A stretch of 64,000 bases of DNA. It comes from an uncultured Chloroflexia bacterium (lineage in GTDB: Bacteria > Chloroflexota > Limnocylindria > QHBO01). Below the pieces are notes generated by a model that was not told where the DNA came from, did not search any database, and saw only the letters and a list, made by a program, of their open reading frames with translations. Positions 2,805-60,401 of the stretch are shown piece by piece. Every line of letters starts with the position of its first letter. Positions within the stretch are counted from its first letter, which is position 1. The DNA is taken from NCBI GenBank assembly GCA_963783725.1, contig CAWAOJ010000002.1:2045279-2109278 (forward strand), in the 5' to 3' direction. The translations under genes were made by a program, and so were the position numbers.

Positions 2805-5018
2805 TCAGCGCGACGCGGGGACGAAGACCAGCGTGCCGAGCGGCGGCAGCGTCAGCTCGGCCGAGGCGGGAAGGCCGTGGAACGGGATCGCCTCGCCGCG
2901 CACGCCGCCCAGGTTGCCGACGTTCGAGCCGCCGTACAGCTCGGCGTCGGAGTTGAGCACCTCGTCGTACGCGATGGCGCGCGGCATCCCCAAGCGGTAC
3001 CCGTGCCGCACCACCGGGGTCAGGTTCTGGACCACGACCGCGAACTCGCCCGACTCGACCGACCCGCGGACGAAGGCGAAGATCGAGGCCTCGACGTCCG
3101 AGCAGTCGATCCAGGCGAATCCGGCCGGGTCCGGATCCGACCTCCACAGCGCCGGCGTGCCGAGGTAGAGCGCGCCGAGATCGGCCAGGTAACGGCCGAA
3201 GGCCGCCCGCATCGGGTCATCGGCCAGAGACCAGTCGAGCCCGACATCGGCGTTCCACTCGGTCCATGGCGCGAGCTCGGTGCCCATGAAGAGCAGCTTC
3301 TTGCCCGGCTGGGTGTACATGTTGGCCAGCAGGCAGCGCAGGTTCGCGAACTTGCGCCACTCGTCGCCGGGCATCTTGTCGAGCAGGGAGCGCTTGCCGT
3401 GCACCACCTCGTCGTGCGACAGCGGCAGCACGAAGTGCTCGGTGTTCAGGTACAGGCCACGGAAGGTCAGCCGGTCCTGGTGGTAGCGCCGGTGGATCGG
3501 GTCGCGGCTGAAGAAGTCGAGCGTGTCGTGCATCCAGCCCATGTCCCACTTGAACCCGAAGCCGAGCCCGCCGGCATACGTCGGGCGGGTGACGCCGGGG
3601 AAGGCGGTCGACTCCTCGGCGATGGTCACGATGCCGCCGAAACGCCCGTAGCAGCGCTCGTTGAACTCGCGCAGGAAGGCGATCGAGTCGAGGTTCTCGT
3701 TGCCGCCGTGCACGTTGGGAATCCACTCGCCGCGCTTGCGCGAGTAGTCGAGGTAGAGCATCGAGGCCACCGCGTCCACCCGCAGCCCGTCGATGTGGAA
3801 CTGGTCGAGCCAGTACAGCGCGTTGGCGACCAGGAAGTTGCGCACCTCGTTGCGCCCGGTGTTGAAGATCAGGGTGCCCCAGTCGGGATGCTCGCCGCGA
3901 CGCGGGTCGGCGTGCTCGTAGAGCGCCGTGCCGTCGAAGCGGGCGAGGCCGAACGCGTCCCGCGGGAAGTGCGCCGGGACCCAGTCCAGGATGACGCCGA
4001 TCCCCGCCCGGTGCAGCGTGTCGACCAGGAAGCGCAGGTCGTCGGGCGAGCCGAAGCGCGAGGTCGGGGCGTAGTAGCCGGTCACCTGGTAGCCCCACGA
4101 GGCGTCGAACGGGTGCTCCGCCAGCGGCAGGAACTCGACGTGGTTGAAGCCGAAGCGCCGGCAGTGCTCGACCAGCAGCGGCGCGGCCTCGCGGTAGCTC
4201 AGCCACGATCCGTCGGCGTGCCGGCGCCACGAGCCAAGGTGGAGCTCGTAGGTGGCGGCGGGGGAGCGGAGCTGGTCGCGACGGGCGCGTTCCGTCATCC
4301 ACGCCTCGTCCCCCCAGGCGTAGTCGTCGAGGCGCACCACTCGCGACGCGGTCTGCGGTCGCAGCTCCATGGCGAAGCCCACCGGATCCCCCTTCAGGCG
4401 CAGCTCGCCGTCGCCGCCGAGGACCTCGTACTTGTACAGCTCCCCGGGACCGATGTCGGGGACGAACAGCTCCCACACGCCGGACGAGCCGAGCGACCGC
4501 ATCGGCATCAGGCGGCCGTTCCAGATGTCGAAGTCGCCGGCCACCCTCACCGACCTCGCCGCCGGCGCCCACACCGCGAACGCGACGCCGTCGACGCCGT
4601 CGATCGTGCGCGGGTGCGCCCCGAGCACGTCATACAGCCGCTCGTGGGTGCCCTCGCCGATCAGGTGCAGGTCCACCTCGCCCAGGGTCGGCAGGAACCG
4701 ATACGGGTCGCCGTGCTCCCAGTGGCTGCCATCGGCGAAGGTGAGACGCAGCCGGTAGCGAAACGCGGCCGGCTGGGCCCCCGCGACGAAGGCCGCCCAG
4801 ATCCCGTTCCCGACGGACTGCATCTCGTACGGGCCGGAGGGGGCGAGCACCGATGCGGCAGTCGCGTCGGGGTGGAAGGCGCGGACGACCACCCCGTCCT
4901 CGACGGCGTGAATGCCGAGCACCGAGTGCGGATCGTGGTGCTCGCCGCGCGCGATTCGGGCGGCGTCGTCGAGCGGCGGCGCCAGCAGGTCGAGCTGAAG
5001 GGACATCGGTCTAACCAT
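2805..5018 (-). CDS. glgB: 1,4-alpha-glucan branching enzyme GlgB.
   Basis: 737 aa. Blocks such as GFRFDAVASMLY and the overall length are typical of GlgB. Confidence 0.9.
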   Translation of the reverse strand: MVRPMSLQLDLLAPPLDDAARIARGEHHDPHSVLGIHAVEDGVVVRAFHPDATAASVLAPSGPYEMQSVGNGIWAAFVAGAQPAAFRYRLRLTFADGSHWEHGDPYRFLPTLGEVDLHLIGEGTHERLYDVLGAHPRTIDGVDGVAFAVWAPAARSVRVAGDFDIWNGRLMPMRSLGSSGVWELFVPDIGPGELYKYEVLGGDGELRLKGDPVGFAMELRPQTASRVVRLDDYAWGDEAWMTERARRDQLRSPAATYELHLGSWRRHADGSWLSYREAAPLLVEHCRRFGFNHVEFLPLAEHPFDASWGYQVTGYYAPTSRFGSPDDLRFLVDTLHRAGIGVILDWVPAHFPRDAFGLARFDGTALYEHADPRRGEHPDWGTLIFNTGRNEVRNFLVANALYWLDQFHIDGLRVDAVASMLYLDYSRKRGEWIPNVHGGNENLDSIAFLREFNERCYGRFGGIVTIAEESTAFPGVTRPTYAGGLGFGFKWDMGWMHDTLDFFSRDPIHRRYHQDRLTFRGLYLNTEHFVLPLSHDEVVHGKRSLLDKMPGDEWRKFANLRCLLANMYTQPGKKLLFMGTELAPWTEWNADVGLDWSLADDPMRAAFGRYLADLGALYLGTPALWRSDPDPAGFAWIDCSDVEASIFAFVRGSVESGEFAVVVQNLTPVVRHGYRLGMPRAIAYDEVLNSDAELYGGSNVGNLGGVRGEAIPFHGLPASAELTLPPLGTLVFVPASR

Positions 5019-5054: not shown

Positions 5055-7115
5055 TCAGCTGTCGGGCGAGAGGGCGCTGCGCACTGCATCCTCGGTCTCT
5101 GCGGAGGTCAGCACGGTGAGCCGATCGCCCGCGTGGACGGTCGTGTCCGCGCGCGGGAAGAGCACCTCCGCCTCGCGCAGCAGCGAGACGACCAGCGTCG
5201 CCGGAGGCAGGATCGCGTCGGCCAGGGTGTGCCCGGCCAGCGGCGACGAATCGGTCACCAGCACCTCGAGCAGCGTCGTCTCGGGCGGCAGGGCGGTGAC
5301 GCGACGGACGCTCTGGCGCAGGACCGACTTGTAGGCTCGCACCACGTCGCGCACGCCAAGGCGGCCGATGACCCGATCGCCGTCCACCACCGGCGCCCAG
5401 CGCACCCGCGCCTCGTCGAGCGCCTGCAGCGCCTCGTCGAGGGCGAGGTCGGGCGACAGCGCGGCCCGCTTCTCGGCGACGTCGCCCACCGTCGCGTCGG
5501 ATGGCGCCGCCAGCAGCGCGTCGGCCGTCACCACGCCGACCAGCCGCCCGCCATCGGCCACCACGGCGCCCGTCTCCGCGGCAGTCGTGCGCGCGACCGC
5601 GATCGTCGTCGACGAGCTGAGCGGCATGACCGCGACGACCGCGTCGCGAACCGCTAGCGAGGAGAGCAGCGGGAACGAGAGGCGAACGCGGTGCGCCGGC
5701 GAGGCCGCCCGGTTGGGGAGCTGCGAGCGATAGATCGAGTGGTCGCCGACCAGCGCGGTGGAGAGCGCCACCGCGATCATGGCCGGCGCCAGCAGCGACA
5801 GGTTGCCGGTCATCTCGGCCACCATGAGCATCACCGCCAGCGGCGCGTGGGCGATCCCGCCGAAGAGCGCCATCATGCCCACGATCACGAAGGGCGCCGG
5901 ATCGGCGGGGAGGCCGGGCAGCACCCCCACGCCGAGCCGCCACAGCGCCGCCCCCAGGAAGCCGCCGATCACCATGCCGGGGCCGAAGATGCCGCCGGAT
6001 CCTCCCGATCCGATCGACAGCGCGGTGGCGGCGATCTTGGCGAAGGGCAGGACCAGCACGACCCACAGCGGGATGCCAAGCAGCTCGCGGGTCATGCCGA
6101 CCTGCACCCACCCGTAGCCGGTGTGCAGCGCCTGGGGCAGCACCAGGCCGATGAGCCCGACCGCCAGGCCCCCGATGGCGGGCTTGGTCCAGCGCGGCAG
6201 CCTGAGCCGCTTGAACGCGTCCACCGCGCCGTAGAAGACCTTCGAGTAGAGCATCCCGACCAGGCCGCAGGCGATCCCGAGCACCGCGTAGTACGGCAGC
6301 TGGATCGGCGATTCGAGCGCGATCCCGGGCTGCGCTCCGAAGATCGGCTGGAAGCCGTAGAAGGCGCCGAAGACGCTGTAGGCGACGATCGAGGCGATGA
6401 GGCCGGGGATGATCGCCTCGACCTCGAGGTCGTGCAGGTACAGGATCTCGGCGGCCATGACCGCGCCCCCGAGCGGCGCGCGGAAGATGGCGCCGATCCC
6501 CGCGCCCATGCCGGCCGCGACGGCGATGCGCCGATCCTGCGCGCTGAGGTGCAGCCAGGTCGCGAGCAGCGACCCGAACCCGGCCGAGATCTGCGCGGCC
6601 GGCCCCTCGCGCCCGCCGGAGCCACCGCTGCCGATGGTGATTGCCGAAGCGATGAGCTTGATGGGCGGGATGCGCGCCCGCATTCGTCCGCCGCGGTGAT
6701 GCACCGCGTCGATGGCCGCATCGGTCCCGTGGCCCTCCGCCTCGGGGGCGAGGCCGAACACGATGGCGCCGGAGACAAGGCCGCCCAGCGCCACGACCAG
6801 CGGGACGAGGAGCGGGGCGCTGCTCGGCAGGGCCGCGCCCCTGACGCCGCCTTCGCCGAAGGGCAGTGGCGGAAGGTAGCCCGCCAGGTCGCCGAGCAGG
6901 AGCCGCGTGGCGAGCTCCAGGACCAGGAAGAAGAGCGCGGCCCCGAGCCCCGCCACGATGCCGATCAGCGTGCTCAGCACCGCCCACTTGCCCAGGTAGG
7001 CCTGGCCCTCGAAACCGCCGGCTCCGCCGCGGGAAGGGACGGCGTGCACGGCGCGAGCGAGCAGCGTGCGCAGGCCACGGCGCGAGGCCGGGGCCGACTC
7101 CTGGGGTGGTGTCAC
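5055..7115 (-). CDS. ClC-family chloride channel with C-terminal CBS pair and TrkA-C domain.
   Basis: GSGGSGGREGP and GIFGPGM selectivity motifs, about 10 TM segments, and a C-terminal RCK_C-like tail. Confidence 0.8.
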   Translation of the reverse strand: MTPPQESAPASRRGLRTLLARAVHAVPSRGGAGGFEGQAYLGKWAVLSTLIGIVAGLGAALFFLVLELATRLLLGDLAGYLPPLPFGEGGVRGAALPSSAPLLVPLVVALGGLVSGAIVFGLAPEAEGHGTDAAIDAVHHRGGRMRARIPPIKLIASAITIGSGGSGGREGPAAQISAGFGSLLATWLHLSAQDRRIAVAAGMGAGIGAIFRAPLGGAVMAAEILYLHDLEVEAIIPGLIASIVAYSVFGAFYGFQPIFGAQPGIALESPIQLPYYAVLGIACGLVGMLYSKVFYGAVDAFKRLRLPRWTKPAIGGLAVGLIGLVLPQALHTGYGWVQVGMTRELLGIPLWVVLVLPFAKIAATALSIGSGGSGGIFGPGMVIGGFLGAALWRLGVGVLPGLPADPAPFVIVGMMALFGGIAHAPLAVMLMVAEMTGNLSLLAPAMIAVALSTALVGDHSIYRSQLPNRAASPAHRVRLSFPLLSSLAVRDAVVAVMPLSSSTTIAVARTTAAETGAVVADGGRLVGVVTADALLAAPSDATVGDVAEKRAALSPDLALDEALQALDEARVRWAPVVDGDRVIGRLGVRDVVRAYKSVLRQSVRRVTALPPETTLLEVLVTDSSPLAGHTLADAILPPATLVVSLLREAEVLFPRADTTVHAGDRLTVLTSAETEDAVRSALSPDS

Positions 7116-17246: not shown

Positions 17247-17273
17247 TCCCTCCCGCGCGTTGGCGCCCCATAC

Positions 17274-17319
17274 GTACGGGGTCGAAGGTCCACTTTGTCG
17301 CCCCGAAGCGACCCCGTAC
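17274..17319 (+). promoter_or_regulatory. Perfect 11-bp inverted repeat (GTACGGGGTCG ... CGACCCCGTAC, 24-nt loop) in the leader of the S8 peptidase gene.
   Basis: Seen directly in the sequence. Its 5' arm lies within a 14-nt core CGTACGGGGTCGAA that is also present in the two ~120-nt elements at 57.7 and 58.3 kb. Confidence 0.4.
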
Positions 17320-20325: not shown

Positions 20326-20921
20326 ATGAACGACCGCGCGTCCGTGCGCATCCACCCCACGGCCGAGGTCTCGCCGAGGCGAGCATCGGTCCCGGCACCA
20401 GCATCTGGAACCAGGCCCAGGTGCGCGAGGGTGCTCGCATCGGGGCTGGCTGCGTCGTCGCCAAGAACGTCTACGTCGATGCCGGCGTGGTCGTCGGGGA
20501 CAATGTCAAGATCGGCAACAACGTCAGCCTCTTCCACGGATTGACGGTGGAGGACGGCGTCTTCATCGGTCCTCACGTCTGCTTCACAAACGACCGGCTG
20601 CCACGCGCCATCAACCCCGATGGCTCGCTGAAGGGCGCGGACGACTGGGAGGTCAGCCCCACCCTGGTGCGCCACGGCGCGTCGCTGGGGGCCAACAGCA
20701 CCATCCTGCCCGGCATCACCATCGGCCGATGGGCGATGGTCGGCTCGGGAGCGGTGGTGACCCGCGACGTGGCCGACAACGAGCTGGTGGTCGGCAACCC
20801 GGCGCGCCGTCTCGGCGGGGCCTGCCGCTGCGGCCAGCCGCTGCGCGACGCCGCCGACGGCACGCCCTTCACGGGCGAATGCCCGCGCTGCGGCGAGCCG
20901 TTCACCGCGGGCGCCAGGTGA
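20326..20921 (+). CDS. Left-handed beta-helix (hexapeptide-repeat) sugar N-acetyltransferase, WbpD/PglD-like; single-base frameshift near 20370-20380.
   Basis: [16 protein letters not shown] in frame 1 continues as [15 protein letters not shown]... in frame 0. The break looks like one missing G in ccgGaggcg. Confidence 0.7.
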
Positions 20922-22024
20922 AGGTTCTCTCCGTCGTCGGCGCGCGGCCGCAGTTCGTCAAGGCGGCGCCGGTCAGCCGTGCGCTGCGCGACGACCACCA
21001 GGAGGTGCTGGTCCACACCGGCCAGCACTACGACGACGCGATGAGCGCCGCGTTCTTCCGCGACCTCGAGATGGCGCCGCCCGACGTCAACCTCGAGGTC
21101 GGCAGCGGGTCGCACGCGGCGCAGACGGCGGAGATGCTGCGCAGGCTCGAGCCGGTCGTGCTCGAGCACGAGCCGGACGCGATCCTGGTCTACGGCGACA
21201 CGAATTCGACTCTGGCAGCCGCCGTCGTCGGCAGCAAGGTCGCCTATCCCGACGGACGGCGACCGTGGATGGGGCACGTCGAGGCGGGCCTGCGGTCGTT
21301 CAACCGCGCCATGCCCGAGGAGCGCAACCGCATCGTGGCCGACCACCTCGCCGACCTGCTGCTCGCCCCGTCGGCGGCCGCGGTCGAGCACCTCGCGCGC
21401 GAGGGCCTGGCCGATCGCAGCGAGCTCGTCGGCGACGTGATGGTGGACAGCCACATGTGGGCCACGGAGCGCAGCAGCGCGCACCTTCCGCAGGAGGCGC
21501 GTCACGCGCCGGGCTATCTGCTGCTCACCCTGCACCGCGCCGAGAACGTGGACGACGCAGCGCTGCTGACGGCGTGGATGCGCGCGCTGGCCGTCGCCGA
21601 GCCGATCATCTTCCCGGCGCATCCCCGCACGCGCGCAGCGCTCGAGCGAGCGGGAATCGCGCCGCCGCCCAACGTGCGCCTCATCGAGCCGGTGGGGTAC
21701 CTCGAGATGGTCGCGCTGGAGGCGAGCGCGCGCGCGGTGCTGACCGACTCGGGCGGCGTGCAGAAGGAGGCGTATCTCTCGAGAGTGCCGTGCCTCACCC
21801 TTCGCGGCGAGACGGAGTGGGTCGAGACCGTGGCCGCGGGATGGAACCGTCTGGTCGGGCCGGGTGAGGGCGAGCTGGCATCCGCGCTGAGCGACGACGA
21901 ATTCATGCGCCGTGATCGCCCGCGCCCCGAGCTCTACGGCGACGGCCGCGCCGCGTCGCGTATCGTGGCAGCGCTCGAACGACAGCAGATGCGGCGGCAG
22001 CGCCGTCCGGAGGTGGTGGCTTGA
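20918..22024 (+). CDS. wecB: Non-hydrolysing UDP-GlcNAc(-derivative) 2-epimerase (WecB/WbpI-like).
   Basis: [17 protein letters not shown] and DSGG.QKE motifs. The GTG start overlaps the upstream stop (GTGA). Confidence 0.85.
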
Positions 22025-23124
22025 TCCCGATCGCGCGCCCGCAGATGGGCGAAGAGGAGAAGGAGATGGTGGCGCGCACGCTCGACTCGGGCGTGCTGGC
22101 GCAGGGGCCGCGCGTGGCCGAGCTCGAGGCCGCCTTCGCGGCCTTCGTGGGCGTGCCGCACGCCATCGCCACCTCGTCGGGGACGACCGCGCTGCACCTG
22201 GCGCTGCTCGGCTACGGCATCGGTCCCGGGGACGAGGTCATCACCGTCCCGTTCACCTTCATCGCCAGCGCCAACTCCATCCTGTACACGGGAGCGCGCC
22301 CGGTCTTCGTCGACATCGACGAGGCGAGCTTCGACATGGATCCCGCACTGATCGAGGCGGCGATCACGCCGCGCACCAAGGGGATCATGCCGGTCAGCCT
22401 GTACGGCAACCCGGCCGACATGCCGCGCATCACCGAGATCGCCGGGCGCCACGGCCTGGTGGTGATCGAGGACGCGGCACAGGCGCACGGCGCGGCCATC
22501 GACGGCCGGCGGTCGGGCAGCTGGGGCGCCGGGGCCTTCAGCTTCTACCCGACCAAGAACATGACCACCGGCGAGGGCGGGATGGTCACCACCGCCGACG
22601 CCGCGCTGGCCGAGCGGGTTCACCTGCTGCGCGAGCACGGCATGAAGGTGCGCTACCACCACGACATCCTGGGCTACAACTTCCGCATGACCGATGTGCA
22701 CGCCGCGATCGGGCTCGCCCAGCTGCCGAAGCTGGCGGCCAACAACGCGCGTCGGATCGAGATCGCGGAGCGCTACGGGCGCGAGCTGCGCGGCGTGATC
22801 ACGCCGAGCGTGCGTCCCGGCGTGACGCACGTCTTCCACCAGTACACGATCCGGGTCAACCGCCGCGACGAGTTCGCCGAACGGCTGCGCCAGCGCGGCG
22901 TCGGGACGGGCATCTTCTACCCGATCCCGGTGCACCACCAGAAGCCGTTCATCGAGCTCGGCTACGGCGACCAGTCGTACCCGGTCACCGAGCGGCTGAC
23001 GGAGCAGGTGATCTCGATCCCGGTGCATCCCACGCTCAGCGACGACGAGGTCGCGGCGGTGATCGCGGCGGTGAACGAGACGGCGATCGCGCTCGGTCCC
23101 CTGGCCGCCGCGGTGAGCGCATGA
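22021..23124 (+). CDS. DegT/DnrJ/EryC1-family PLP-dependent sugar aminotransferase (WbpE-like).
   Basis: The N-terminus [19 protein letters not shown] and the SSGTTALHLAL block match the family. TTG start with a TTGA overlap. Confidence 0.8.
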   Translation: MIPIARPQMGEEEKEMVARTLDSGVLAQGPRVAELEAAFAAFVGVPHAIATSSGTTALHLALLGYGIGPGDEVITVPFTFIASANSILYTGARPVFVDIDEASFDMDPALIEAAITPRTKGIMPVSLYGNPADMPRITEIAGRHGLVVIEDAAQAHGAAIDGRRSGSWGAGAFSFYPTKNMTTGEGGMVTTADAALAERVHLLREHGMKVRYHHDILGYNFRMTDVHAAIGLAQLPKLAANNARRIEIAERYGRELRGVITPSVRPGVTHVFHQYTIRVNRRDEFAERLRQRGVGTGIFYPIPVHHQKPFIELGYGDQSYPVTERLTEQVISIPVHPTLSDDEVAAVIAAVNETAIALGPLAAAVSA

Positions 23125-24170
23125 GGGACGGCCGCCGGCTGCGCGCCGGCGTGGTGGGGCTGGGCATGATGGGACGCAACCACGTCCGCGTCTACGACGA
23201 GCTGCTCGACGACGTGGAGCTGGTCGCGGTGGCCGACGCCTCGCCGGAGGCCGTGACGCGCGCCACCGCCGGTCGCGCGGCGCGTGGCTACACCGACGCC
23301 GGGCGCATGTTCGCGGAGGAGGAGCTGGACCTGGTGAGCGTGGTGGTGCCGACGTCGCTGCACCTGCCGCTCACCCTGGCGGCGCTCGACGCCGGGGCGC
23401 ACGTCCTGGTCGAGAAGCCGATCGCCGGCCGCCGCGACGAGGCGGAGAAGATGATCGAGGCGGCGCAGGCGGCAGGACGGATCCTCAGCGTCGGCCACAT
23501 CGAGCGCTTCAACCCGGCCATCCGCGAACTCAAGCGCCGCCTGGAGGCGGGTGAGCTCGGCCGGCTGTTCCAGATCAAGGCGACGCGGCTGGGGCCGTTT
23601 CCGGCGCGGATTCGCGACGTGGGGGTCGTGATCGACCTCGCGCCGCACGACCTCGACATCATGCGCTACCTGATCGGCAGCGACCCGGTGCGGCTCTACG
23701 CCGAGACGGAGCAGCGCATCCACACCGATCACGAGGACCTTTTCAGCGGCATCCTCAAGTTCGCCAACGGGGTCATCGGCGTGCTCGACATCAACTGGCT
23801 CACGCCGACCAAGCAGCGAACGCTGTCGGTGACCGGCGAGCGCGGGATGTACGTCGCCGACTACATCGGCCAGGACCTGGTCTTCTTCGCCAACCCGGAC
23901 GCCACGCACACCTGGCGCAACCCTGGCGCCTCGGCCGCCTCGCCGGTCAACTCGGTCGCCGAGGGCGAGATGACGCGTCGCTACGTCAAGCGCGAGGAGC
24001 CGCTGGCGGTGGAGCTCAGCGAGTTCGCGCGTGCCGCTCGGTCGGGCGGCCCGCCGCCGGTCGATCCGCACGACGCCATGGTCGCCCTGCTGCTGTCGCA
24101 GAAGATGGTCGAGGCGGGCGAGACGGGCCGCGTCATCGACGGCGCGGCCCTGGCGGAGGCGCTGGCATGA
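23121..24170 (+). CDS. Gfo/Idh/MocA-family NAD-dependent sugar 3-dehydrogenase (WbpB-like).
   Basis: GVVGLGMMGRNH Rossmann motif and an EKP...GHIERFNP block. ATGA overlap at the start. Confidence 0.8.
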   Translation: MRDGRRLRAGVVGLGMMGRNHVRVYDELLDDVELVAVADASPEAVTRATAGRAARGYTDAGRMFAEEELDLVSVVVPTSLHLPLTLAALDAGAHVLVEKPIAGRRDEAEKMIEAAQAAGRILSVGHIERFNPAIRELKRRLEAGELGRLFQIKATRLGPFPARIRDVGVVIDLAPHDLDIMRYLIGSDPVRLYAETEQRIHTDHEDLFSGILKFANGVIGVLDINWLTPTKQRTLSVTGERGMYVADYIGQDLVFFANPDATHTWRNPGASAASPVNSVAEGEMTRRYVKREEPLAVELSEFARAARSGGPPPVDPHDAMVALLLSQKMVEAGETGRVIDGAALAEALA

Positions 24171-25447
24171 GGATCGCGGTGGTGGGGCTGGGACACATCG
24201 GCCTGCCGCTGGCGGTGCAGTACGCCAGCCGCGGCCACCAGGTCGTGGGCTGCGACACCGCCGCCTGGATCGTCGAATCCATCAACCGCGGCGAGTCGCC
24301 GCATGACGACGAGCAGGCGCTGGTCGAGCGGGTGCCGCAGCTCGTCGCAGCGGGCAACCTGCGCGCGACGACCGACGACGCCGAGGGCGTCCGCGGGGCC
24401 GAGGCGGTGGTCGTCATCGTGCCAGTGGTGGTGGACGCGCAGCGCGAGATCGACTTTCGGCCCATCGACGCCGCGACGCGCGACATCGCGGCCGGGCTCC
24501 AGCCGGGAACGCTGGTGGTGTACGAGACGACACTGCCGGTCGGCACCACGCGCGACCGCTTCGGACCGATGCTGGCCGAGGGCAGCGGCCTGGAGCGCGA
24601 CGGAGACTTCTTCCTCGCCTTCTCCCCGGAGCGGGTGCTGGTCGGCCGCGTCTTCACTGACCTTCGGCGCTACCCGAAGATCGTGGGCGGGACGAGCGAC
24701 GAGAGCACGCGACGCGCGACCGAGTTCTATCGGTCCGTGCTCGACGAGGGCACCGACGTGTGGGCCGTCGCGAACGCGGAGACCGCGGAGATGACCAAGC
24801 TGGCCGAGACGACCTACCGCGACGTCAACATCGCCTATGCCAACGAGCTGGCCCGCTACGCCGCGAAGCGCGGCATCGACGTGCTGGAGGTCATCGGCGC
24901 GGCGAACTCGCAGCCGTACAGCCACATCCACCAGCCGGGCGTGGGCGTCGGCGGTCACTGCATCCCGGTCTACCCGCACTTCCTGTTCAACGGCGACCCC
25001 TCGCTGCGCATCCCGCCCCTGGCGCGGGAGATCAACGAGGAGATGGCGGCCTGGACGGTGGACGCGGTGGAGGACGTGGTCGGATCGCTCGACGGCGTGC
25101 CGGTGCTCGTGCTCGGCGTCGCGTACCGGGCCGACGTGCGCGAGGACGCCTTCTCGAGCGCCTTCCGGCTGCGCGACGAGCTGCTCGCGGCGGGTGCCAC
25201 CGTCTACGGCCACGATCCGTACTTCGACGCGCAGCACCTGCGCTCGCTGGGCTTCGAGCCGTACGACCTGGCCGATCCGGCCCCCGCCAGGGTGGCCATC
25301 CTGCAGGCCGGCCACGAGGCATATCGGCAGCTCGACCCGGGTGCCATCCCGCGCCTGGAGCTCTTCGTCGACGGGCGCAACGCCCTCGACCCCGCGCCGT
25401 TCGAGGCCGCCGGGGTGCGCTACCTGGGCGTGGGTCACCGCAGCTGA
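24167..25447 (+). CDS. UDP-N-acetyl-D-glucosamine/mannosamine 6-dehydrogenase (WbpA/WecC family).
   Basis: MRIAVVGLGHIGLPLA N-terminus and the UDP-glucose/GDP-mannose dehydrogenase family architecture. ATGA overlap at the start. Confidence 0.8.
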   Translation: MRIAVVGLGHIGLPLAVQYASRGHQVVGCDTAAWIVESINRGESPHDDEQALVERVPQLVAAGNLRATTDDAEGVRGAEAVVVIVPVVVDAQREIDFRPIDAATRDIAAGLQPGTLVVYETTLPVGTTRDRFGPMLAEGSGLERDGDFFLAFSPERVLVGRVFTDLRRYPKIVGGTSDESTRRATEFYRSVLDEGTDVWAVANAETAEMTKLAETTYRDVNIAYANELARYAAKRGIDVLEVIGAANSQPYSHIHQPGVGVGGHCIPVYPHFLFNGDPSLRIPPLAREINEEMAAWTVDAVEDVVGSLDGVPVLVLGVAYRADVREDAFSSAFRLRDELLAAGATVYGHDPYFDAQHLRSLGFEPYDLADPAPARVAILQAGHEAYRQLDPGAIPRLELFVDGRNALDPAPFEAAGVRYLGVGHRS

Positions 25448-31954: not shown

Positions 31955-32031
31955 CGGGGCGTAGCACAGCCTGGTAGCGCACCTGCTTTGGGAGCAGGAG
32001 GTCGCCGGTTCGAATCCGGCCGCCCCGACCA
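31955..32031 (+). tRNA. tRNA-Pro (anticodon TGG).
   Basis: A cloverleaf was folded by hand: 7-bp acceptor stem, anticodon loop TTTGGGA (anticodon TGG, G37), T-loop TTCGAAT, a 5-nt variable loop, and a 3' ACCA. The D-stem has one A-C mismatch. Confidence 0.85.
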
Positions 32032-53318: not shown

Positions 53319-54491
53319 ATGACTGATCCGACGGCCCGCCCTCGGGTCACCATGCTCGTCCGCAACGCCTTCACCCACGACACGCGCGTCGAGCGCGAGG
53401 CGCGCTCTCTCGCCGCGGCCGGCCATCGGGTGACGATCGTCGCCGAGGCGAGGCCGGGGCTCCCGCTGCGCGAGGAGAAGGCGAGTGCCAGCGTGATTCG
53501 CGTTCCGCGACCGCTCGCGCGCGTGCCGGCGCTGCGCTTCCTGGCGTACGTGTGGCGGCTCCAATCGGTCGTCGAGAAGACCCGGCCCGACGTCCTGCAT
53601 GCCCATGACACCGATGCGCTGCAGTCGATGGGGCCTGCCGCCCGGCGCCTGGGCGTTCCCTTCGTCTACGACGCGCACGAGCTGTGGCTTGGCCGGGCCG
53701 CGCGCGGGCATTCGGGCGTCTACGACCGGCTGGCGCGTGCCTACTACGGGCTGGTCGAGCGACGCCACGTCCCGCGTGCCGCGGCGGTGATCGTGGCGAA
53801 TCCCGGCGTCGGGCCCGAACTAGAGCGCCGTTACGGCATACGCGGCGTGCGCGCGGTGCCGAACTACCCCGTCGAGACCGGGCCGGTCGAGCGCCGCGAG
53901 CTGCGCTCCCTGCCGGGGGGCGACCGCATCCCGCACGACGCGCCGATCGTGCTGTACAGCGGCGGGATCACCATCGATCGCGGCATCGAGCAGCTCGTGC
54001 AGGCCATGACCGAGGTCCCCGACGCGCACCTCGTCTTCATGGGTGGCGGCGGACTGGAGCCGGAGATCCGCCGCCTGGTGTCGCAGCTCGGCCTCGACGA
54101 TCGGGTCCACTTCCTGGGCATGGTGCCCAGCGACGAGGTGGTGGCCTACACCGCATCGGCCACCGTCGGCGTGCTCAGCACCGTGCCGGTCAGCCTCAAC
54201 AACGTGCTGGCGCTGCCGAACAAGATCTTCCAGTACATGGCGGCGGGCATCCCGCTCGTCGCCAGCGACTACCCGCAGATTCGCGAGGTCGTGGAGGGCT
54301 CGGGCGCCGGGCGGGTGATGGACTCCTCGGACCCCTCGGCCATCGCGGCGGCCCTGCGCGCGGTGCTCGCCGACCCCGATGCGGCACGCGCCGCGGGGGA
54401 GCGGGGCCGCGCCGCGGTCGTCAGCACCTACCATTGGGCGGTATCCGAGCGGACGCTGCTCGAGGTCTATCGGCAGGTGGAGGGCGCATGA
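53319..54491 (+). CDS. GT4-family glycosyltransferase, intact.
   Basis: PRVTMLVRNAFTHDTR N-terminus, AHD..A motif and a C-terminal NKIFQYMAAGIPLVASD block. Confidence 0.8.
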   Translation: MTDPTARPRVTMLVRNAFTHDTRVEREARSLAAAGHRVTIVAEARPGLPLREEKASASVIRVPRPLARVPALRFLAYVWRLQSVVEKTRPDVLHAHDTDALQSMGPAARRLGVPFVYDAHELWLGRAARGHSGVYDRLARAYYGLVERRHVPRAAAVIVANPGVGPELERRYGIRGVRAVPNYPVETGPVERRELRSLPGGDRIPHDAPIVLYSGGITIDRGIEQLVQAMTEVPDAHLVFMGGGGLEPEIRRLVSQLGLDDRVHFLGMVPSDEVVAYTASATVGVLSTVPVSLNNVLALPNKIFQYMAAGIPLVASDYPQIREVVEGSGAGRVMDSSDPSAIAAALRAVLADPDAARAAGERGRAAVVSTYHWAVSERTLLEVYRQVEGA

Positions 54492-55803
54492 CGGAGCTGG
54501 CGGATCCGCGCATCGCGGTCATCGGGCTGGGCTACGTCGGCTTGCCGTTGGCGCTCGACCTCGCGGACGCGGGCTACGACGTGCTGGGCATCGAGGCATC
54601 GCCGGAGCGGCTGGCCCAGCTGCGCGCAGCCGACAGCTACGTTGACGACGTCCCGTCTTCGCGGCTGCAGGCGGCGTACGACGCGGGTCGCTTCCGGGTC
54701 GGCGACACCGACACCCCATGGACCGATGCGGACGTCGCCTTCATCTGCGTCCCCACGCCGGTGACGGCGAGCCGCGAGCCGGACCTGCGTCCGGTGCTGG
54801 CGGCGGGCGAGTACGTCCGCGCCGGGCTGCGTCGCGGCGACATGGTGGTGCTGCAGAGCACGACCTACCCGGGCACGACCGTCGGGCCGCTGCGAGATGT
54901 CCTCGAGCGGGACGGGCTGCGGGCCGGGACCGATTTCGGCCTCGCCTTCTCGCCGGAGCGCGTCGAGTCCGGGCGAGGGCCGCCCTTCGTCCAGCATCCC
55001 GCGCCTGGTGGGCGGCACCGATGCGGCGACCACGGCGCGGGCGTCGGCGATCCTGGGCAAGGTGGCCCCATCGGTCACGGAGATGTCCAGCCCCGACGCC
55101 GCGGAGCTGGCCAAGCTGTTCGAGAACGTCTTCCGCAACGTCAACATCGCGCTGGTCAACGAGCTCGCGCTGATCTGCGAGCGCCTTGGCCTGGACGTGT
55201 GGGAGGTGATCCGCGGCGCGTCGACCAAGCCGTTCGGCTTCATGCCCTTCTACCCCGGGCCGGGCGTGGGCGGCCACTGCATCCCGGTCGACCCGTACTA
55301 CCTCGCCGCGCGCGCCCGCGAGGTCGGCGTGCAGGAGCGCTTCATCGAGACCGCTGGCGACATCAACTCGCGCATGCCGGAGCACGTCGTGCGGCTGGTG
55401 CAGGAAGGGTTGAACGAGCGATCGAAGCCGCTGCGCGGCTCATCGGTCCTGGTGCTCGGGGTGGCGTTCAAGCCGGGCGTCTCGGACGCCAGGAACTCGC
55501 CGGCGGCCGGCGTCATCGCCGGGCTGCAGCAGCGCGGAGGGATCGTCAGCTACCACGACCCGCGCCTGCCGCACTTCGACCCGCGGCACGAGACGGGAGA
55601 TGGGCGAGCCGCTCGACAGCACGCCGCTCGCGGAAGCGCTCGACGCCGATCCCGACTGCGTGGTGATCGTCACGCCGCACGCCGAGATCGACTTCGACGC
55701 GGTCTTCGCGCGCTGCGACCTGGTGATGGACACGCGCGACGTCTCCCACGATCGCTCGGTTCGCCCGGGACAGGTGCTCAAGCTCGGCGCGGGCTGGAGC
55801 TAG
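54488..55803 (+). pseudogene. UDP-N-acetyl-D-hexosamine 6-dehydrogenase family (WbpA/WecC-like), with two frameshifts (~54990 and ~55600).
   Basis: The N-terminus (MTELADPRIAVIGLGYVGLPLA) is in frame 2, the middle (..NELALICERLG...GGHCIPVDPYYL...) in the frame of ORF 54897-56594 and the C-terminus in the frame of ORF 55600-55803. The feature length is not a multiple of 3. Confidence 0.55.
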
Positions 55804-56909
55804 CGCACCCGCTCCAGGACCGCGACGATCCGTTCGGCCGCGTGGCCGTCCCACAGCGGCGGCGTGCGAGCGGCGCCCGGATCCTCGCGAAGGCGCGCTC
55901 CAGCTGCCGGACCGATGCGGCCCGGATCGGTCCCGATCAGGCGGTTGGTGCCCTCGGTGATCGTGATCGGTCGCTCGGTGTTGTCGCGGAAGGTGAGGCA
56001 CGGCACGCCGAGCACCGTGGTCTCCTCCTGGATGCCGCCCGAATCGGTCAGCACCAGCCGGGCATGGGCCTCGAGGCGCAGGAAGTCGAGGTAGCCCGAC
56101 GGCGGGATCGCGCTGATCAGCGGGGCGTCGAGCGCGAGGCCGGCCGCGTCGGCCACCGCGCGCGTGCGCGGATGGATCGGGAAGACGACCGGCAGCGGGG
56201 CGCCGCGCGAGCGCGCCTCAGGATCGGCCGCAGCTGCTGCGGGTCGTCCACGTTGGCGGGCCGGTGCAGCGTCACGAGCAGGTACTCGCCCGGCGGCGAG
56301 CCCGAGCTTCGCCAGCGGGCCGCGGTCGGGCGCCTCGCCGCGGTGGCGCTCCAGCGTGTCGATCATGGTGTTGCCGACCAAATGGATCTGCGTCCGGCGC
56401 GTGGCCCTCGTCGCCGAAGGTTCCCGTCGGCGTCGGCCGAGGTGGTGAAGAGGATGTCGCTGAGCGCGTCGGTCACGATGCGGTTGATCTCCTCGGGCAT
56501 CGTCCGGTCGAACGAGCGCAGCCCGGCCTCCACGTGCGCCAGGCGGCACGCCGCGCCTTGGCGGCGACCACGCTGCAGGCGAGGGTCGAGTTGACGTCGC
56601 CGAACGACCATCACCAGGTCGGTCGCGTCGCCTCGAAGCAGCTGCTCGAAGCTCGACCATCACGCGGCCGGTCTGCTCGGCGTGCGAGCCGGAGCCGACG
56701 CCCAGGTGGACGTCCGGATCGGGCGATGTCCAGGTCCCGCGAAGAAGGCCCCGCTCATCGCGGCGGTCGTAGTGCTGGCCGGTGTGCACGAAGCTGGTCG
56801 CGAACCGGTCCCGGCCGTCGCAGGGCAGCGCAGCACCGGCGCCGCCTTCATGAAGTTGGGCCGCGCGCCGGCGACGAGCGATGATCCGCAGCGTCAGCTG
56901 CCCCGCCAC
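55800..56909 (-). pseudogene. Second UDP-GlcNAc 2-epimerase (WecB-like) copy, with at least three frameshifts.
   Basis: An intact C-terminal half (IHLVGNTMIDTL...LTDSGGIQEET...) and N-terminal blocks ([28 protein letters not shown]) that lie in two other frames. Confidence 0.55.
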
Positions 56910-56910
56910 G

Positions 56911-57444
56911 TCAGCGCCACGTTCCCGGCTCGACGTCCCTCGGTCCGCTTCCGCTCCTCATCGCGTCGTCGATGATCCGCCACGCCTCGTCCACGCCCAC
57001 CCAGCCCTTGATATCGGTCTCGCGCTTCTCGAGGGTCTTGTAGGTCTGGAAGAAGTTCTCGATCTCCACCAGCCGATGCGGCGAGACGTCCTCGAGCGCG
57101 TTCGCCCCCTCCCAGCGCGGGTCGTCGTGCGCCACGGCGAGGATCTTGTAGTCGTGGCCCTTCTCGTCGGCCATGTCGAGCGCGCCGATCGGCCGCGCGC
57201 GCACCACGCAGCCCGGAAAGGTCGGCTCGCTGATCACCACCAGCACGTCGAGCGGGTCGCCGTCCTCGGCCAGGCTGCCGTCGATGAAGCCGTAGTCGCA
57301 CGGGTAGTGGACGCTGCTGTACAGCACGCGGTCGAGCACGAACCGATGCTTCACGTGGTCGTACTCGTACTTGTTGCGGCTGCCGGCGGGGATCTCGACG
57401 GTGACCTCCAGCATCCCGCGGCCCGGTCGCGCCTCGTCGTTCAC
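56911..57444 (-). CDS. ppa: Family I inorganic pyrophosphatase.
   Basis: EIP.GS.NKYEYD and DGDPLDVLV motifs. An alternative start is the Met at 57414. Confidence 0.85.
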   Translation of the reverse strand: MNDEARPGRGMLEVTVEIPAGSRNKYEYDHVKHRFVLDRVLYSSVHYPCDYGFIDGSLAEDGDPLDVLVVISEPTFPGCVVRARPIGALDMADEKGHDYKILAVAHDDPRWEGANALEDVSPHRLVEIENFFQTYKTLEKRETDIKGWVGVDEAWRIIDDAMRSGSGPRDVEPGTWR

Positions 57445-57485
57445 GCGCTCAGTATGCGACGGGGGAGCGTGCCGGGGCCCGGATA

Positions 57486-57693
57486 TCGGCCCTGGCGATA
57501 ATTCCGCGTCAGAACCGGCCGCCAGCCCCCAATTGACGCGGTTTCATCGGCCCTGGCGATAATTCCGCGTCAGAACCGGCCGCCAGCCCCCAATTGACGC
57601 GGTTTCATCGGCCCTGGCGATAATTCCGCGTCAGAACCGGCCGTCCTGCCCCCAATTGACGCGGTTTCATCGGCCCTGGCGATAATTCCGCGC
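57486..57693. repeat. Tandem direct repeat: 61-bp unit x3.4 (three full units plus a ~25-nt partial). Each unit carries TTGACG-N19-GATAAT and an 8-bp inverted repeat TGACGCGG/CCGCGTCA.
   Basis: Seen directly in the sequence. Units begin at 57486, 57547 and 57608 with a partial at 57669. The third unit has a 3-nt variant. Confidence 0.8.
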
Positions 57694-57739
57694 CAGAGCT
57701 GGCCCGCAGACGCCGCGACCGCCGTACCGGTCGCCTGAT

Positions 57740-57856
57740 GACCCCTTAAGTCCGAAGTGGCGCGCGATTCTCTGCGTACGGGGTCGAAAACGGTCCGGTA
57801 TGAGCACCGATGCGGCCACTCCCGACCATAAGGTCCCGAGTCGGACCCCTTAGCGC
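57740..57856. repeat. Copy 1 of a ~120-nt intergenic repeat element, starting GACCCCTTAAGT and ending GACCCCTTAGCG.
   Basis: About 80% identical to copy 2 at 58319-58442. Contains the core CGTACGGGGTCGAA and internal palindromic arms GACCCC...GGGGTC. Confidence 0.6.
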
Positions 57857-58272
57857 GTGTCCGAGTCACCGAGGACCGAGCCCCGAGCGCCCCCGCGCCA
57901 GAGCGCACCGGCGACCGCGATCGCGGCAATCCCGGCGCAGCCCAGCCCCACGATAAGCGCCGGCAGCAGCGACGGGTTGTACGTGCCAGCCCCCGCGTAG
58001 TGGATGCCGCCCAGGCTCGAGCAGACGGTGCTCGAGACGCCGCCCACGATCCCCGTCGCGGTGCAGCCGAACGGTGCGACCGCCAGGTAGCCGATGTCGA
58101 ACGCCACGACGGCCGCGAGTGCGGGCCACAGGATCAGCCGCCGCCGGCGGAACGGGGATACGACCAGCATGGCGGCACCCAGCAGAAGGAACGGTTGACC
58201 GATGGTGAAGCCAGCCACGAAGCCGAATACCAGCAGCGCGACCGCCACGATCCAGTAGCCCATCACCCGCAT
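57850..58272 (-). CDS. Small hydrophobic membrane protein (~140 aa, 4 predicted TM), function unknown.
   Basis: Only the distal 140 codons of track ORF 57850-58692 look protein-like (MRVMGYWIVAVALLVFGFVAGF...). The upstream part is low complexity. Confidence 0.45.
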   Translation of the reverse strand: MRVMGYWIVAVALLVFGFVAGFTIGQPFLLLGAAMLVVSPFRRRRLILWPALAAVVAFDIGYLAVAPFGCTATGIVGGVSSTVCSSLGGIHYAGAGTYNPSLLPALIVGLGCAGIAAIAVAGALWRGGARGSVLGDSDTR

Positions 58273-58318
58273 TGTCGGCCAGGAATCAAGTCCGGCCTGG
58301 CGGTACCGGGCCCCTGGC

Positions 58319-58442
58319 GACCCCTTAAGTGGCGCGACAGCGCGATTCCCTGCGTACGGGGTCGAGATCGGACCGGTATGTCGGCCGACACGGGCCGATG
58401 CGGCCACTCCCGAGTTAAGGTCCCGAATCCGACCCCTTAGCG
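58319..58442. repeat. Copy 2 of the ~120-nt intergenic repeat element.
   Basis: Aligns with 57740-57856 along its length with two short indels. Its end overlaps the stop codon of the GH15 gene. Confidence 0.6.
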
Positions 58443-60401
58443 GGTCGGCGATCTCCTCCGCTGCCCCGCCCCGTTCCCATGCCCGTTCGCGGCGTGCCGT
58501 GGCGAGAGCGACGTCGGTCGGTCCGCGCCCCGCTGCTCGGCCGCCTCCGCGGCGATGAGGTGCGTCACCGCGTTGATCAGCGCCAGGTGGGTGAACGCCT
58601 GCGGGAAGTTTCCGAGGTGGCGCCCGGTCTCCGGGTCGATCTCCTCGCCGTACAGGCCCAGGTCGCTGGCGAGGGCGAGCAGCTTCTCGCACAGGCTGCG
58701 CGCGCGTCGCACCTCGCCGATCTCCACCAGCGCGGAGACGAGCCAGAAGGAGCAGATGGTGAAGGCGCCCTCGTGGCCGGAGAGGCCGTCATCGGTCTCG
58801 TCCGTGCGGTAGCGCAGGACCAGCCCGTCGTCGGTCAGCTCGTCCGCGATGGCGAGCACGGTGCGCCGGATGCGGTCGTCATCGGGCGGCAGGAAGCGCA
58901 CCAGCGGCATGAGCAGGACCGATGCGTCCAGCGCGTCGCTGCCGTACGACTGCGTGAAGACGCCGCGCTTGTCCACGGCGTTCGCGCAAATGTCGGCCTT
59001 GATCTCGTCGGCGGCGGCGCGCCAGCGGGCCATCCGCTCGTCGTCGCCGCGCAGCTCGGCCAGCAGCGCCCCGCGATCGGCCGCCACCCAGCACATCACC
59101 TTGGAGGACGTGAAGTGGCGCGGCTCGCCGCGGACCTCCCAGATCCCGCGGTCCGGCTCCCGCCAGTGCTCCAGCGCGGAGTCCACCAGCCGCACCAGGA
59201 TCGGCCAGATGCGCTCGTCCAGGTGATCGGTGGACTTGGTGTGCAGGTAGAACGAGTCGAGCACCGCGCCCCACACGTCGTGCTGGGTCTGGCCGAAGGC
59301 GCCGTTGCCGATGCGGACCGGCTGCGCGCCCTCGTAGCCCCGGAGGTGCGAGAGGATCGTCTCGTCGGGGACCGGGTCGCCCTCGAGCGTCGTCATCACG
59401 GGGAGCCGCTCGTAGCGCTCGGCGACCTCGGCGATGAAGTGCAGATAGTCGTTCGCCTCCCAGTCGAAGCCGAGCGTGTAGAGGCCCCACAGCGCGAAGG
59501 TCGAGTCGCGGATCCAGGTGTAGCGGTAGTCCCAGTTGCGCTCGCCGCCGGGCGTCTCCGGCAGCGAGGTCGTGGCCGCGGCCGCCACCGCCCCCGTCGG
59601 CCCGTAGGTGAGCCCCTTCAGGGTCAGCGCCGAGCGCTCGAGCGCGGCGCGCCAGGGATGGTCGGGGAACGTCCCGCGCGCCAGCCAGTGCTGCCAGTGG
59701 TGGGCGGTCCAGACCAGCCGTCGATACGCCTCGTCGGTGGTGGTGGGCGAGGCGTTGAGGCCCCACGACAGCGCGCAGAAGCGGGTCTCGCCCTCCTTGA
59801 TCAGCGTCCGGCCGAGCGCGCGCGGGCCTTCCGCGCCGAGGTTGATGTCGCTGGTCAGGGTGAGCGCGATCTCCTCGCCGTCACCGCGACACACCATCTG
59901 GCGGTAGCCGGCGCCTGCGTACTCCCACGTCCCCAGCCGGCGGCCGTAGTCGAAGACCGGCTCGCAGTCGATGGTGAGCTGCACGGCGCCGTTCACGCAG
60001 CGGACCATGCGCAGCAGGATGTGCTCCGCGTCGTAGTCGGTCGGCGCGCGGCGCTGCGACTCCGAGCGCTCCTCCTCATGTCGCCAGGGACCGATGAGCA
60101 GCACGTCGCGGATCACGACCCATCCCTGGCTGGTGCCCCAGCTCGTCTCGAGCACCATGGTGCCGGGCAGGTAGCGGCGCGCGGCCGGCACCTCGACGTC
60201 CGAGGGCCCGAAGCGGAAGCCGCCCGCCGTGCGGTCCAGCAGCGCGCCGAAGACGCTGGGCGAGTCCACGCGAGGCAGGCACAGCCATTCGACGTTGCCC
60301 GACGGCGCGATGAGCGCCATGTTCTCGCAGTCGGAGAGGAACCCGTAGTCGGCGATGGGCGGGAACTGCGACGCCCCGTACGGCACGTCGAGGCCCGGCA
60401 T
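58437..60401 (-). CDS. GH15-family glycoside hydrolase (glucoamylase/trehalase-like).
   Basis: 654 aa with the GH15 (alpha/alpha)6 catalytic-domain pattern (..WIRDSTFALWGL.., ..SSKVMCWVA..), as in actinobacterial GH15 trehalases. Confidence 0.8.
   Translation of the reverse strand: MPGLDVPYGASQFPPIADYGFLSDCENMALIAPSGNVEWLCLPRVDSPSVFGALLDRTAGGFRFGPSDVEVPAARRYLPGTMVLETSWGTSQGWVVIRDVLLIGPWRHEEERSESQRRAPTDYDAEHILLRMVRCVNGAVQLTIDCEPVFDYGRRLGTWEYAGAGYRQMVCRGDGEEIALTLTSDINLGAEGPRALGRTLIKEGETRFCALSWGLNASPTTTDEAYRRLVWTAHHWQHWLARGTFPDHPWRAALERSALTLKGLTYGPTGAVAAAATTSLPETPGGERNWDYRYTWIRDSTFALWGLYTLGFDWEANDYLHFIAEVAERYERLPVMTTLEGDPVPDETILSHLRGYEGAQPVRIGNGAFGQTQHDVWGAVLDSFYLHTKSTDHLDERIWPILVRLVDSALEHWREPDRGIWEVRGEPRHFTSSKVMCWVAADRGALLAELRGDDERMARWRAAADEIKADICANAVDKRGVFTQSYGSDALDASVLLMPLVRFLPPDDDRIRRTVLAIADELTDDGLVLRYRTDETDDGLSGHEGAFTICSFWLVSALVEIGEVRRARSLCEKLLALASDLGLYGEEIDPETGRHLGNFPQAFTHLALINAVTHLIAAEAAEQRGADRPTSLSPRHAANGHGNGAGQRRRSPTR

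Follow-up and report, generated by a model that had tools for sequence, protein, structure and literature searches.

The GH15–ppa junction and its insertion

The locus lies within a 64-kb stretch of DNA (the window), which is mostly a cell-envelope polysaccharide region. Going by how close GH15 homologs are named, the organism is a Limnocylindria-like member of the Chloroflexota. Several CWB2-repeat proteins are encoded at 9.3–20.3 kb, and UDP-GlcNAc 2-epimerase and UDP-glucose dehydrogenase paralogs occur twice, in inverted orientation (20330–25444 vs 54400–56909); inverted repeats at 21270–21393 and 56418–56541, which are 76% complementary, belong to these paralogous gene pairs. All genes at the locus are on the minus strand, and a small membrane-protein gene lies between genes for a GH15 glycoside hydrolase and an inorganic pyrophosphatase (ppa), together with a tandem array and two copies, E_A and E_B, of a non-coding repeat (E). 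The features are as follows.

56911–57444, minus strand: inorganic pyrophosphatase gene (ppa); ~16–20 nt upstream of its start (CGCATACTGAG..) are kept at 57445–57459
57460–58446, minus strand: lineage-specific insertion block of 987 bp between GH15 and ppa; right boundary uncertain within ~57460–57480
57485–57704, no strand assigned: 61-bp tandem array, 3.6 copies with 96% matches, the ppa-proximal part of the insertion
57720–57861, no strand assigned: E_A, adjoining the membrane gene on its 3' side (minus-strand sense), with a TAA stop (57850–57852) inside
57850–58263, minus strand: gene for a membrane protein with four transmembrane segments (4-TM); start at 58263 (MGYW...) picked by homolog alignment, alternative ATG at 58272
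58299–58446, no strand assigned: E_B, with the GH15 stop TAA (58437–58439) inside, at the GH15-proximal end of the insertion
58437–60401, minus strand: GH15/trehalase-like glycoside hydrolase gene; ancestral C-terminal tail replaced, last codons and stop from E_B

The minus-strand order that had been predicted (GH15, E_B, membrane gene, E_A, 61-bp repeats, ppa) was correct, and 35 nt separate E_B from the start of the membrane gene downstream of it. Compared to relatives, GH15 homology stops at ...GAGATCGCC (58447) and restarts at TCGCATACTGAG..GTGAAC (57459), just upstream of ppa, in a region that forms the GH15 tail in two relatives (L002 and L019); the 987-bp block is therefore a lineage-specific insertion. 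In relatives whose GH15 is 83–84% identical (L002, L015–L018 and L019; four lineages), GH15 and ppa overlap by 4–14 nt (L002 2168–2181, L015 4998–5001, L019 2217–2230), which suggests that the two genes may be translationally coupled there; in the closest relative (L001, GH15 86% identical) an unrelated 277-nt spacer separates them. The element, the membrane gene and the 61-bp repeats are all absent from the GH15–ppa junction in five related lineages (L001, L002, L015–L019). These comparisons show that the insertion split an ancestrally overlapping GH15–ppa pair, brought in the membrane gene and replaced the GH15 tail. GH15 in the window now has an E-encoded end (..SPTR*), and the old tail sequence persists as the upstream region of ppa. 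The TAA stops of GH15 and of the membrane gene both lie in the CGCTAAGGGGTC of the element, and E supplies the stop codon of both genes. At the two junctions of the block, a possible 4–5-nt duplication, TCGC(C), was seen by eye against the relatives and is tentative; terminal inverted repeats at the block ends were not significant (p 0.37). That E might be native sequence on the 3' side of GH15, or of the membrane gene, was also considered and rejected, as the likeness seen by eye to two contigs (L001, L009) was no better than in shuffles.

Judged from its homologs (44–58% identity in a MAFFT alignment) and a GC3 of 0.89, the membrane gene is real. The protein has no Pfam match and belongs to an uncharacterised family of ~130–170 aa with invariant Cys70, Cys84, W49-P50 and Y92/G94, members of which occur in soil metagenomes next to varied genes; these homologs lie in unrelated contexts, and their flanks do not carry E. 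One homolog (56% protein identity in the MAFFT alignment), on a Limnocylindria-like contig (L011), has clusters of another 9-mer, GACCATCGA, on both sides (4660–4830 and 5450–5600), in alternating orientation at ~61-nt spacing and with 12 occurrences vs 3.8 expected. Because this homolog is flanked by a different alternating 9-mer, lineage-specific, hairpin-forming intergenic repeats built on short motifs appear to be common in these genomes.

Each unit of the 61-bp array contains inverted 8-mers (TGACGCGG/CCGCGTCA) and, on the plus strand, TTGACG-N19-GATAAT directed away from ppa. One possible role is that of an operator array; another is that of a promoter whose amplification restores ppa expression. 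A promoter and terminator scan of 57300–58700 found neither sigma-70 promoters nor intrinsic terminators.

Two repeat copies and a motif shared with a third intergenic locus

The original prediction of two elements with about 80% identity was borne out: E_A and E_B are direct copies with 77% identity over 145 columns including gaps (BLAST within the window, E 2.7e-24) and 85% column identity in a MAFFT alignment. The limits first given for them (57740–57856 and 58319–58442) fall inside the copies, and the homology is wider (57720–57861 and 58299–58446, from the alignment with flanks included). Three sequences said to be common to both, GACCCCTTAAGT, CGTACGGGGTCGA and GACCCCTTAGCG, are indeed present in each, and the identical blocks comprise GACCCCTTAAGT, GCGCGATTC.CTGCGTACGGGGTCGA, CCGGTATG, the 19-mer CCGATGCGGCCACTCCCGA, TAAGGTCCCGA and GACCCCTTAGCG. 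Differences between the copies are moderately clustered in patches (p 0.02), mainly at two variable hairpin tips. A coding element or small conserved ORF was excluded because three indels (1, 10 and 1 nt) distinguish the copies and their stops differ in every frame. The two full copies are 579 bp apart, and the homology does not extend significantly past E toward the downstream genes. No third full copy was found elsewhere in the 64-kb window, and this absence from the remaining 63 kb suggests that full copies number fewer than about 100.

Within both copies we found a 9-mer, GACCCC(G/T)TA (GACCCCKTA), that occurs eight times in the window vs 0.27 expected, a count reached in 0 of 100 shuffles (64 kb only); the hexamer on its own was not enriched in the window. 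All eight occurrences are in three intergenic loci and alternate in orientation, being forward, reverse, forward in each copy of E (with spacers of 28–67 nt) and reverse, forward in the leader of the S8 peptidase.

57740–57748, plus strand: first motif of E_A (m1), 9-mer GACCCCTTA; equivalent in E_B at 58319–58327
57777–57785, minus strand: second motif of E_A (m2), 9-mer GACCCCGTA, inverted, in the shared core CGTACGGGGTCGA; equivalent in E_B at 58355–58363
57844–57852, plus strand: third motif of E_A (m3), 9-mer GACCCCTTA, overlapping the minus-strand TAA stop; equivalent in E_B at 58431–58439
17274–17319, plus strand: third motif locus, inverted pair GTACGGGGTCG / CGACCCCGTAC, 11 bp perfect with a 24-nt spacer

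The link to the third locus also includes the 14-mer CGTACGGGGTCGAA, which has exactly one further occurrence in the 64-kb window, at 17273–17286, where it forms the 5' arm of a perfect 11-bp hairpin (17274–17284 with 17309–17319). This recurrence before the CWB2 S8 peptidase had been predicted correctly, hairpin included, with coordinates (17272–17285) that were off by one. The hairpin, which lies between a Ham1-family gene, whose stop is 28 nt before it, and the S8/CWB2 peptidase downstream, is weakly similar to the centre of E over an extended stretch (BLAST E 0.008) and, with a fold z of −2.4, was the sole locus that stood out in comparison with the E elements and their halves. Outside the window, GACCCC(G/T)TA was absent from the sampled contigs with GH15 synteny (L001, L002, L015–L020) and from L009/L010, and single isolated occurrences were found in L011 and L012/L013.

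We searched sequence collections for further copies. A three-anchor scan (GACCCCTTA..GGGGTC..GACCCCTTA) of 185,579 species-representative genomes gave no copy of E, returning two chance matches and unrelated AAGGGGTCnGACCCCTT tandem palindromes in an Actinomycetota MAG. In that MAG (JBKPBS01), tandem arrays with a 32-nt period (L003 2934–3070, L006 5234–5367, L007 7239–7343 and L008 7319–7455) are built on the palindrome AAGGGGTCnGACCCCTTAAG, which includes an 11-mer, GACCCCTTAAG, that is the same as the end of E; overall the arrays are unrelated to E. A scan of JGI metagenomes for GTACGGGGTCGA..GGCCACTCCC gave one chance match, within a coding region, two scans of viral contigs gave zero matches, and a blastn search of plasmids and phages with the entire block returned nothing relevant. 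Spurious ORFs annotated over other copies were looked for with a protein query that joined the 12 reading frames of the two copies; nothing was found at E ≤ 10.

The reading we favour, at a probability of roughly 45%, is that E is a genome-specific composite repeat of REP/BIME-like type, tied to a local insertion or duplication. A REP/BOX-type repeat had been among the options originally proposed, and it fits best, as all copies of the 9-mer lie in three intergenic loci, with alternating orientations, and the element is absent at the syntenic site in relatives; the copy count refers to the window only. The exact 14-mer at 17273, with its weak extended similarity, and the position of both copies at or just after stop codons are consistent with a repeat. 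So are the indels that exclude coding, the patches of difference at hairpin tips, the closure of each separately folded half by motif pairs (below), the lack of the element and the membrane gene at the junction in relatives, and the alternating clusters around the L011 homolog. Several observations count against it: three loci are visible, in the window only, no related sequence was found in the searched collections, the two ends of E are direct repeats (GACCCCTTA...GACCCCTTA) and not inverted, and fold energies are no better than those of shuffles. The pair would have arisen at the time of the insertion or later, through duplication or through recombination of one repeat copy with another.

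The alternative with most in its favour, which we nevertheless consider unlikely, is a purely local duplication scar, in which ~145 bp was duplicated when a rearrangement brought the membrane gene to its place between GH15 and ppa. On this account the same unstable spot made the 61-bp array, there is neither a repeat family nor a function, and the likeness at 17273 is coincidental. The proximity of the two full copies in one lineage-specific block, beside a 96%-identical tandem array, agrees with such a scar, as do the absence of another full copy from the 64 kb and from public collections and the absence of covariation and excess stability described below. Against it, a different intergenic region, 40 kb away, also contains the 9-mer and the exact 14-mer (with the BLAST similarity noted above), and the ~20% divergence falls in patches between long stretches of perfect identity, unlike neutral decay.

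Folding of E and the alternatives involving RNA or a gene cassette

The elements had been described as structured, and possibly as cis-regulatory leaders or riboswitches, and neither description was supported. Whether folded whole or as halves, and on either strand, the elements had unremarkable z-scores (−0.06 to −1.8), and the two copies did not show the pairing-preserving differences that had been proposed, since GGTCCG/CGGACC in E_A and GGACC/GGTCC in E_B do not fall in the same columns of the alignment. Every helix of ≥4 bp common to both copies was examined, on both strands, with 0 compensatory (two-sided) changes found, and RNAalifold, from two sequences only, reported 0 or 1 compensatory pairs. 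Among 4227 Rfam models, only a tRNA at 31955 passed the gathering score across the whole window, and nothing overlapped E in 57400–58600 at E ≤ 10. Conservation in relatives, which the original prediction had itself named as a test, was also lacking (L001, L002, L015–L019). The reading of E as a conserved regulator is not supported, and nothing suggests ligand sensing.

When the halves of E were folded separately, the minimum free energy (MFE) structures were closed by motif pairs in both copies. In a minus-strand polycistronic mRNA, these MFE structures suggest that the central GACCCC could pair with the GGGGUC on either side of it; the resulting two hairpins would exclude each other, and one of them would start at the stop codon, which the upstream GGGGUC overlaps. 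By analogy with REP and ERIC elements as generally known, such hairpins might act as 3'-end barriers, as terminators that have no U-tract, or as decouplers of cistrons.

A more specific version of this pairing is a translation-coupled cis-RNA switch in the minus-strand mRNA, in which a terminating ribosome would cover UAAGGGGUC and free the central GACCCC. We regard such a switch as improbable, together with its proposed consequence that the freed GACCCC would pair with the downstream GGGGUC, along with a UACCGG/CCGGUA stem, and alter termination, processing or expression of the next cistron (membrane gene or ppa). The stop codon does lie within the 5' arm in both copies, both have the two mutually exclusive helices, each of which is the MFE structure of a half, and conserved blocks alternate with variable hairpin tips. 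Against a switch stand the lack of an Rfam family, the absence of the element in relatives, zero compensatory changes and the unremarkable z-scores; the key pairs are, moreover, all Watson-Crick and form equally on either strand, and the common position of the stop codon is trivial if the copies are duplicates.

A very improbable alternative is that the copies are recombination sites (integron/attC-like or other site-specific) bounding a single-gene cassette of E, gene and E. Direct repeats of ~120–150 bp in the same orientation lie on both sides of a single small gene; each of them begins at the stop of the ORF upstream on the minus strand, comparison with relatives shows the block to be an insertion, and homologs of the gene lie in unrelated contexts. 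A regex search for the attC cores RYYYAAC and GTTRRRY found neither in either copy on either strand, however, the ends of E are direct, no integrase or recombinase Pfam match was found among the ~40 window ORFs scanned, and the gene homologs elsewhere are without E. That E represents something new, either a stop-codon-embedded, translation-coupled RNA switch or a boundary site of a small gene cassette, we likewise hold to be quite improbable; if it were true, E would travel with the 4-TM membrane gene and set the expression of the cistrons that it separates. The alternating clusters of a different motif around the L011 homolog are a weak parallel for it.

A plus-strand small RNA gene, transcribed from the promoter-like hexamers of the 61-bp repeats into E_A, is the least credible of the alternatives, for although TTGACG and GATAAT are present on the plus strand of each unit and the last unit ends ~25 nt before E_A, a gap of 19 nt separates the hexamers, the scan of 57300–58700 found no promoter or terminator, Rfam gave no match, and E_B, which has no such sequence upstream, keeps the same blocks.

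Comparison with known repeats and regulators

If the REP/BIME-like reading is right, the value of E is mainly descriptive: an uncultured Chloroflexota (Limnocylindria-like) lineage would have its own short-motif, hairpin-forming intergenic repeats, and E would be a clean case of a repeat marking a recent insertion of ~1 kb that split a possibly translationally coupled GH15–ppa pair, rewrote one C-terminus and added an accessory membrane gene. Greater importance would follow only if the alternative hairpins that take in the stop codons regulate the flanking cistrons. For annotators and those who search for RNA motifs, the locus is a caution that paired, similar intergenic elements of ~120 nt need comparative support before they are labelled riboswitch-like.

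Riboswitches and other cis-regulatory leaders resemble E in being intergenic, in a length of ~120 nt, in having conserved blocks with variable hairpin tips and in their possible alternative pairings; they differ from it in Rfam membership, conservation in relatives, covariation and excess stability. Integron attC sites and VCR-type arrays share with E direct repeats of ~120 bp, a small single gene in the same orientation and a repeat that starts at the stop of the upstream ORF; unlike them, E has no RYYYAAC/GTTRRRY cores, no end-to-end dyad symmetry and no nearby integrase, and there is a single cassette only.

REPINs consist of two inverted REPs and a spacer and are mobilised by a RAYT (PMC3116915, PMC3337134). 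Unlike the REP unit, which is an imperfect palindrome, the motif of E (9–12 nt) is not itself palindromic, and the loops between paired motifs are long (24–67 nt) compared with those of classical REPs. E also has three motif copies and long, unrelated conserved blocks beyond the motif, such as the 19-mer, that a REP model leaves unexplained. REPs and REPINs number tens to hundreds of copies per genome, whereas the copy number of E is probably low (window only), and they have a cognate RAYT (a Y1 transposase) in the genome, whereas neither a RAYT nor a transposase Pfam match was found among the ~40 window ORFs scanned. The likeness to REP, BIME and REPIN elements consists in a short motif confined to extragenic DNA, in alternating, hairpin-capable copies, in a lineage-specific sequence and in the siting at or just past stop codons. 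Over-representation and intergenic restriction of the motif, as in REPs and REPINs, also hold for GACCCCKTA (within the 64 kb), and the locus in the S8 leader consists of exactly two motif copies, inverted and separated by a 24-nt spacer.

ERIC, Correia and BOX repeats and MITEs differ from E in that E has no terminal inverted repeats (nor does the 987-bp block) and was seen in two full copies only; as to the target-site duplication of MITEs, the block offers the tentative TCGC only. As generally known, however, these repeats match E in their size of ~120–150 bp, in being non-coding, in their transcribed intergenic location, in overlapping the 3' ends of genes and supplying stop codons, and in having variable internal patches and indels. 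E is in neither Rfam nor any of the searched collections, and nothing so far sets it apart from the known classes of bacterial intergenic repeats. It is best read not as a conserved regulator but as an extragenic repeat that is REP/BIME-like in kind, or ERIC- or MITE-like in size.
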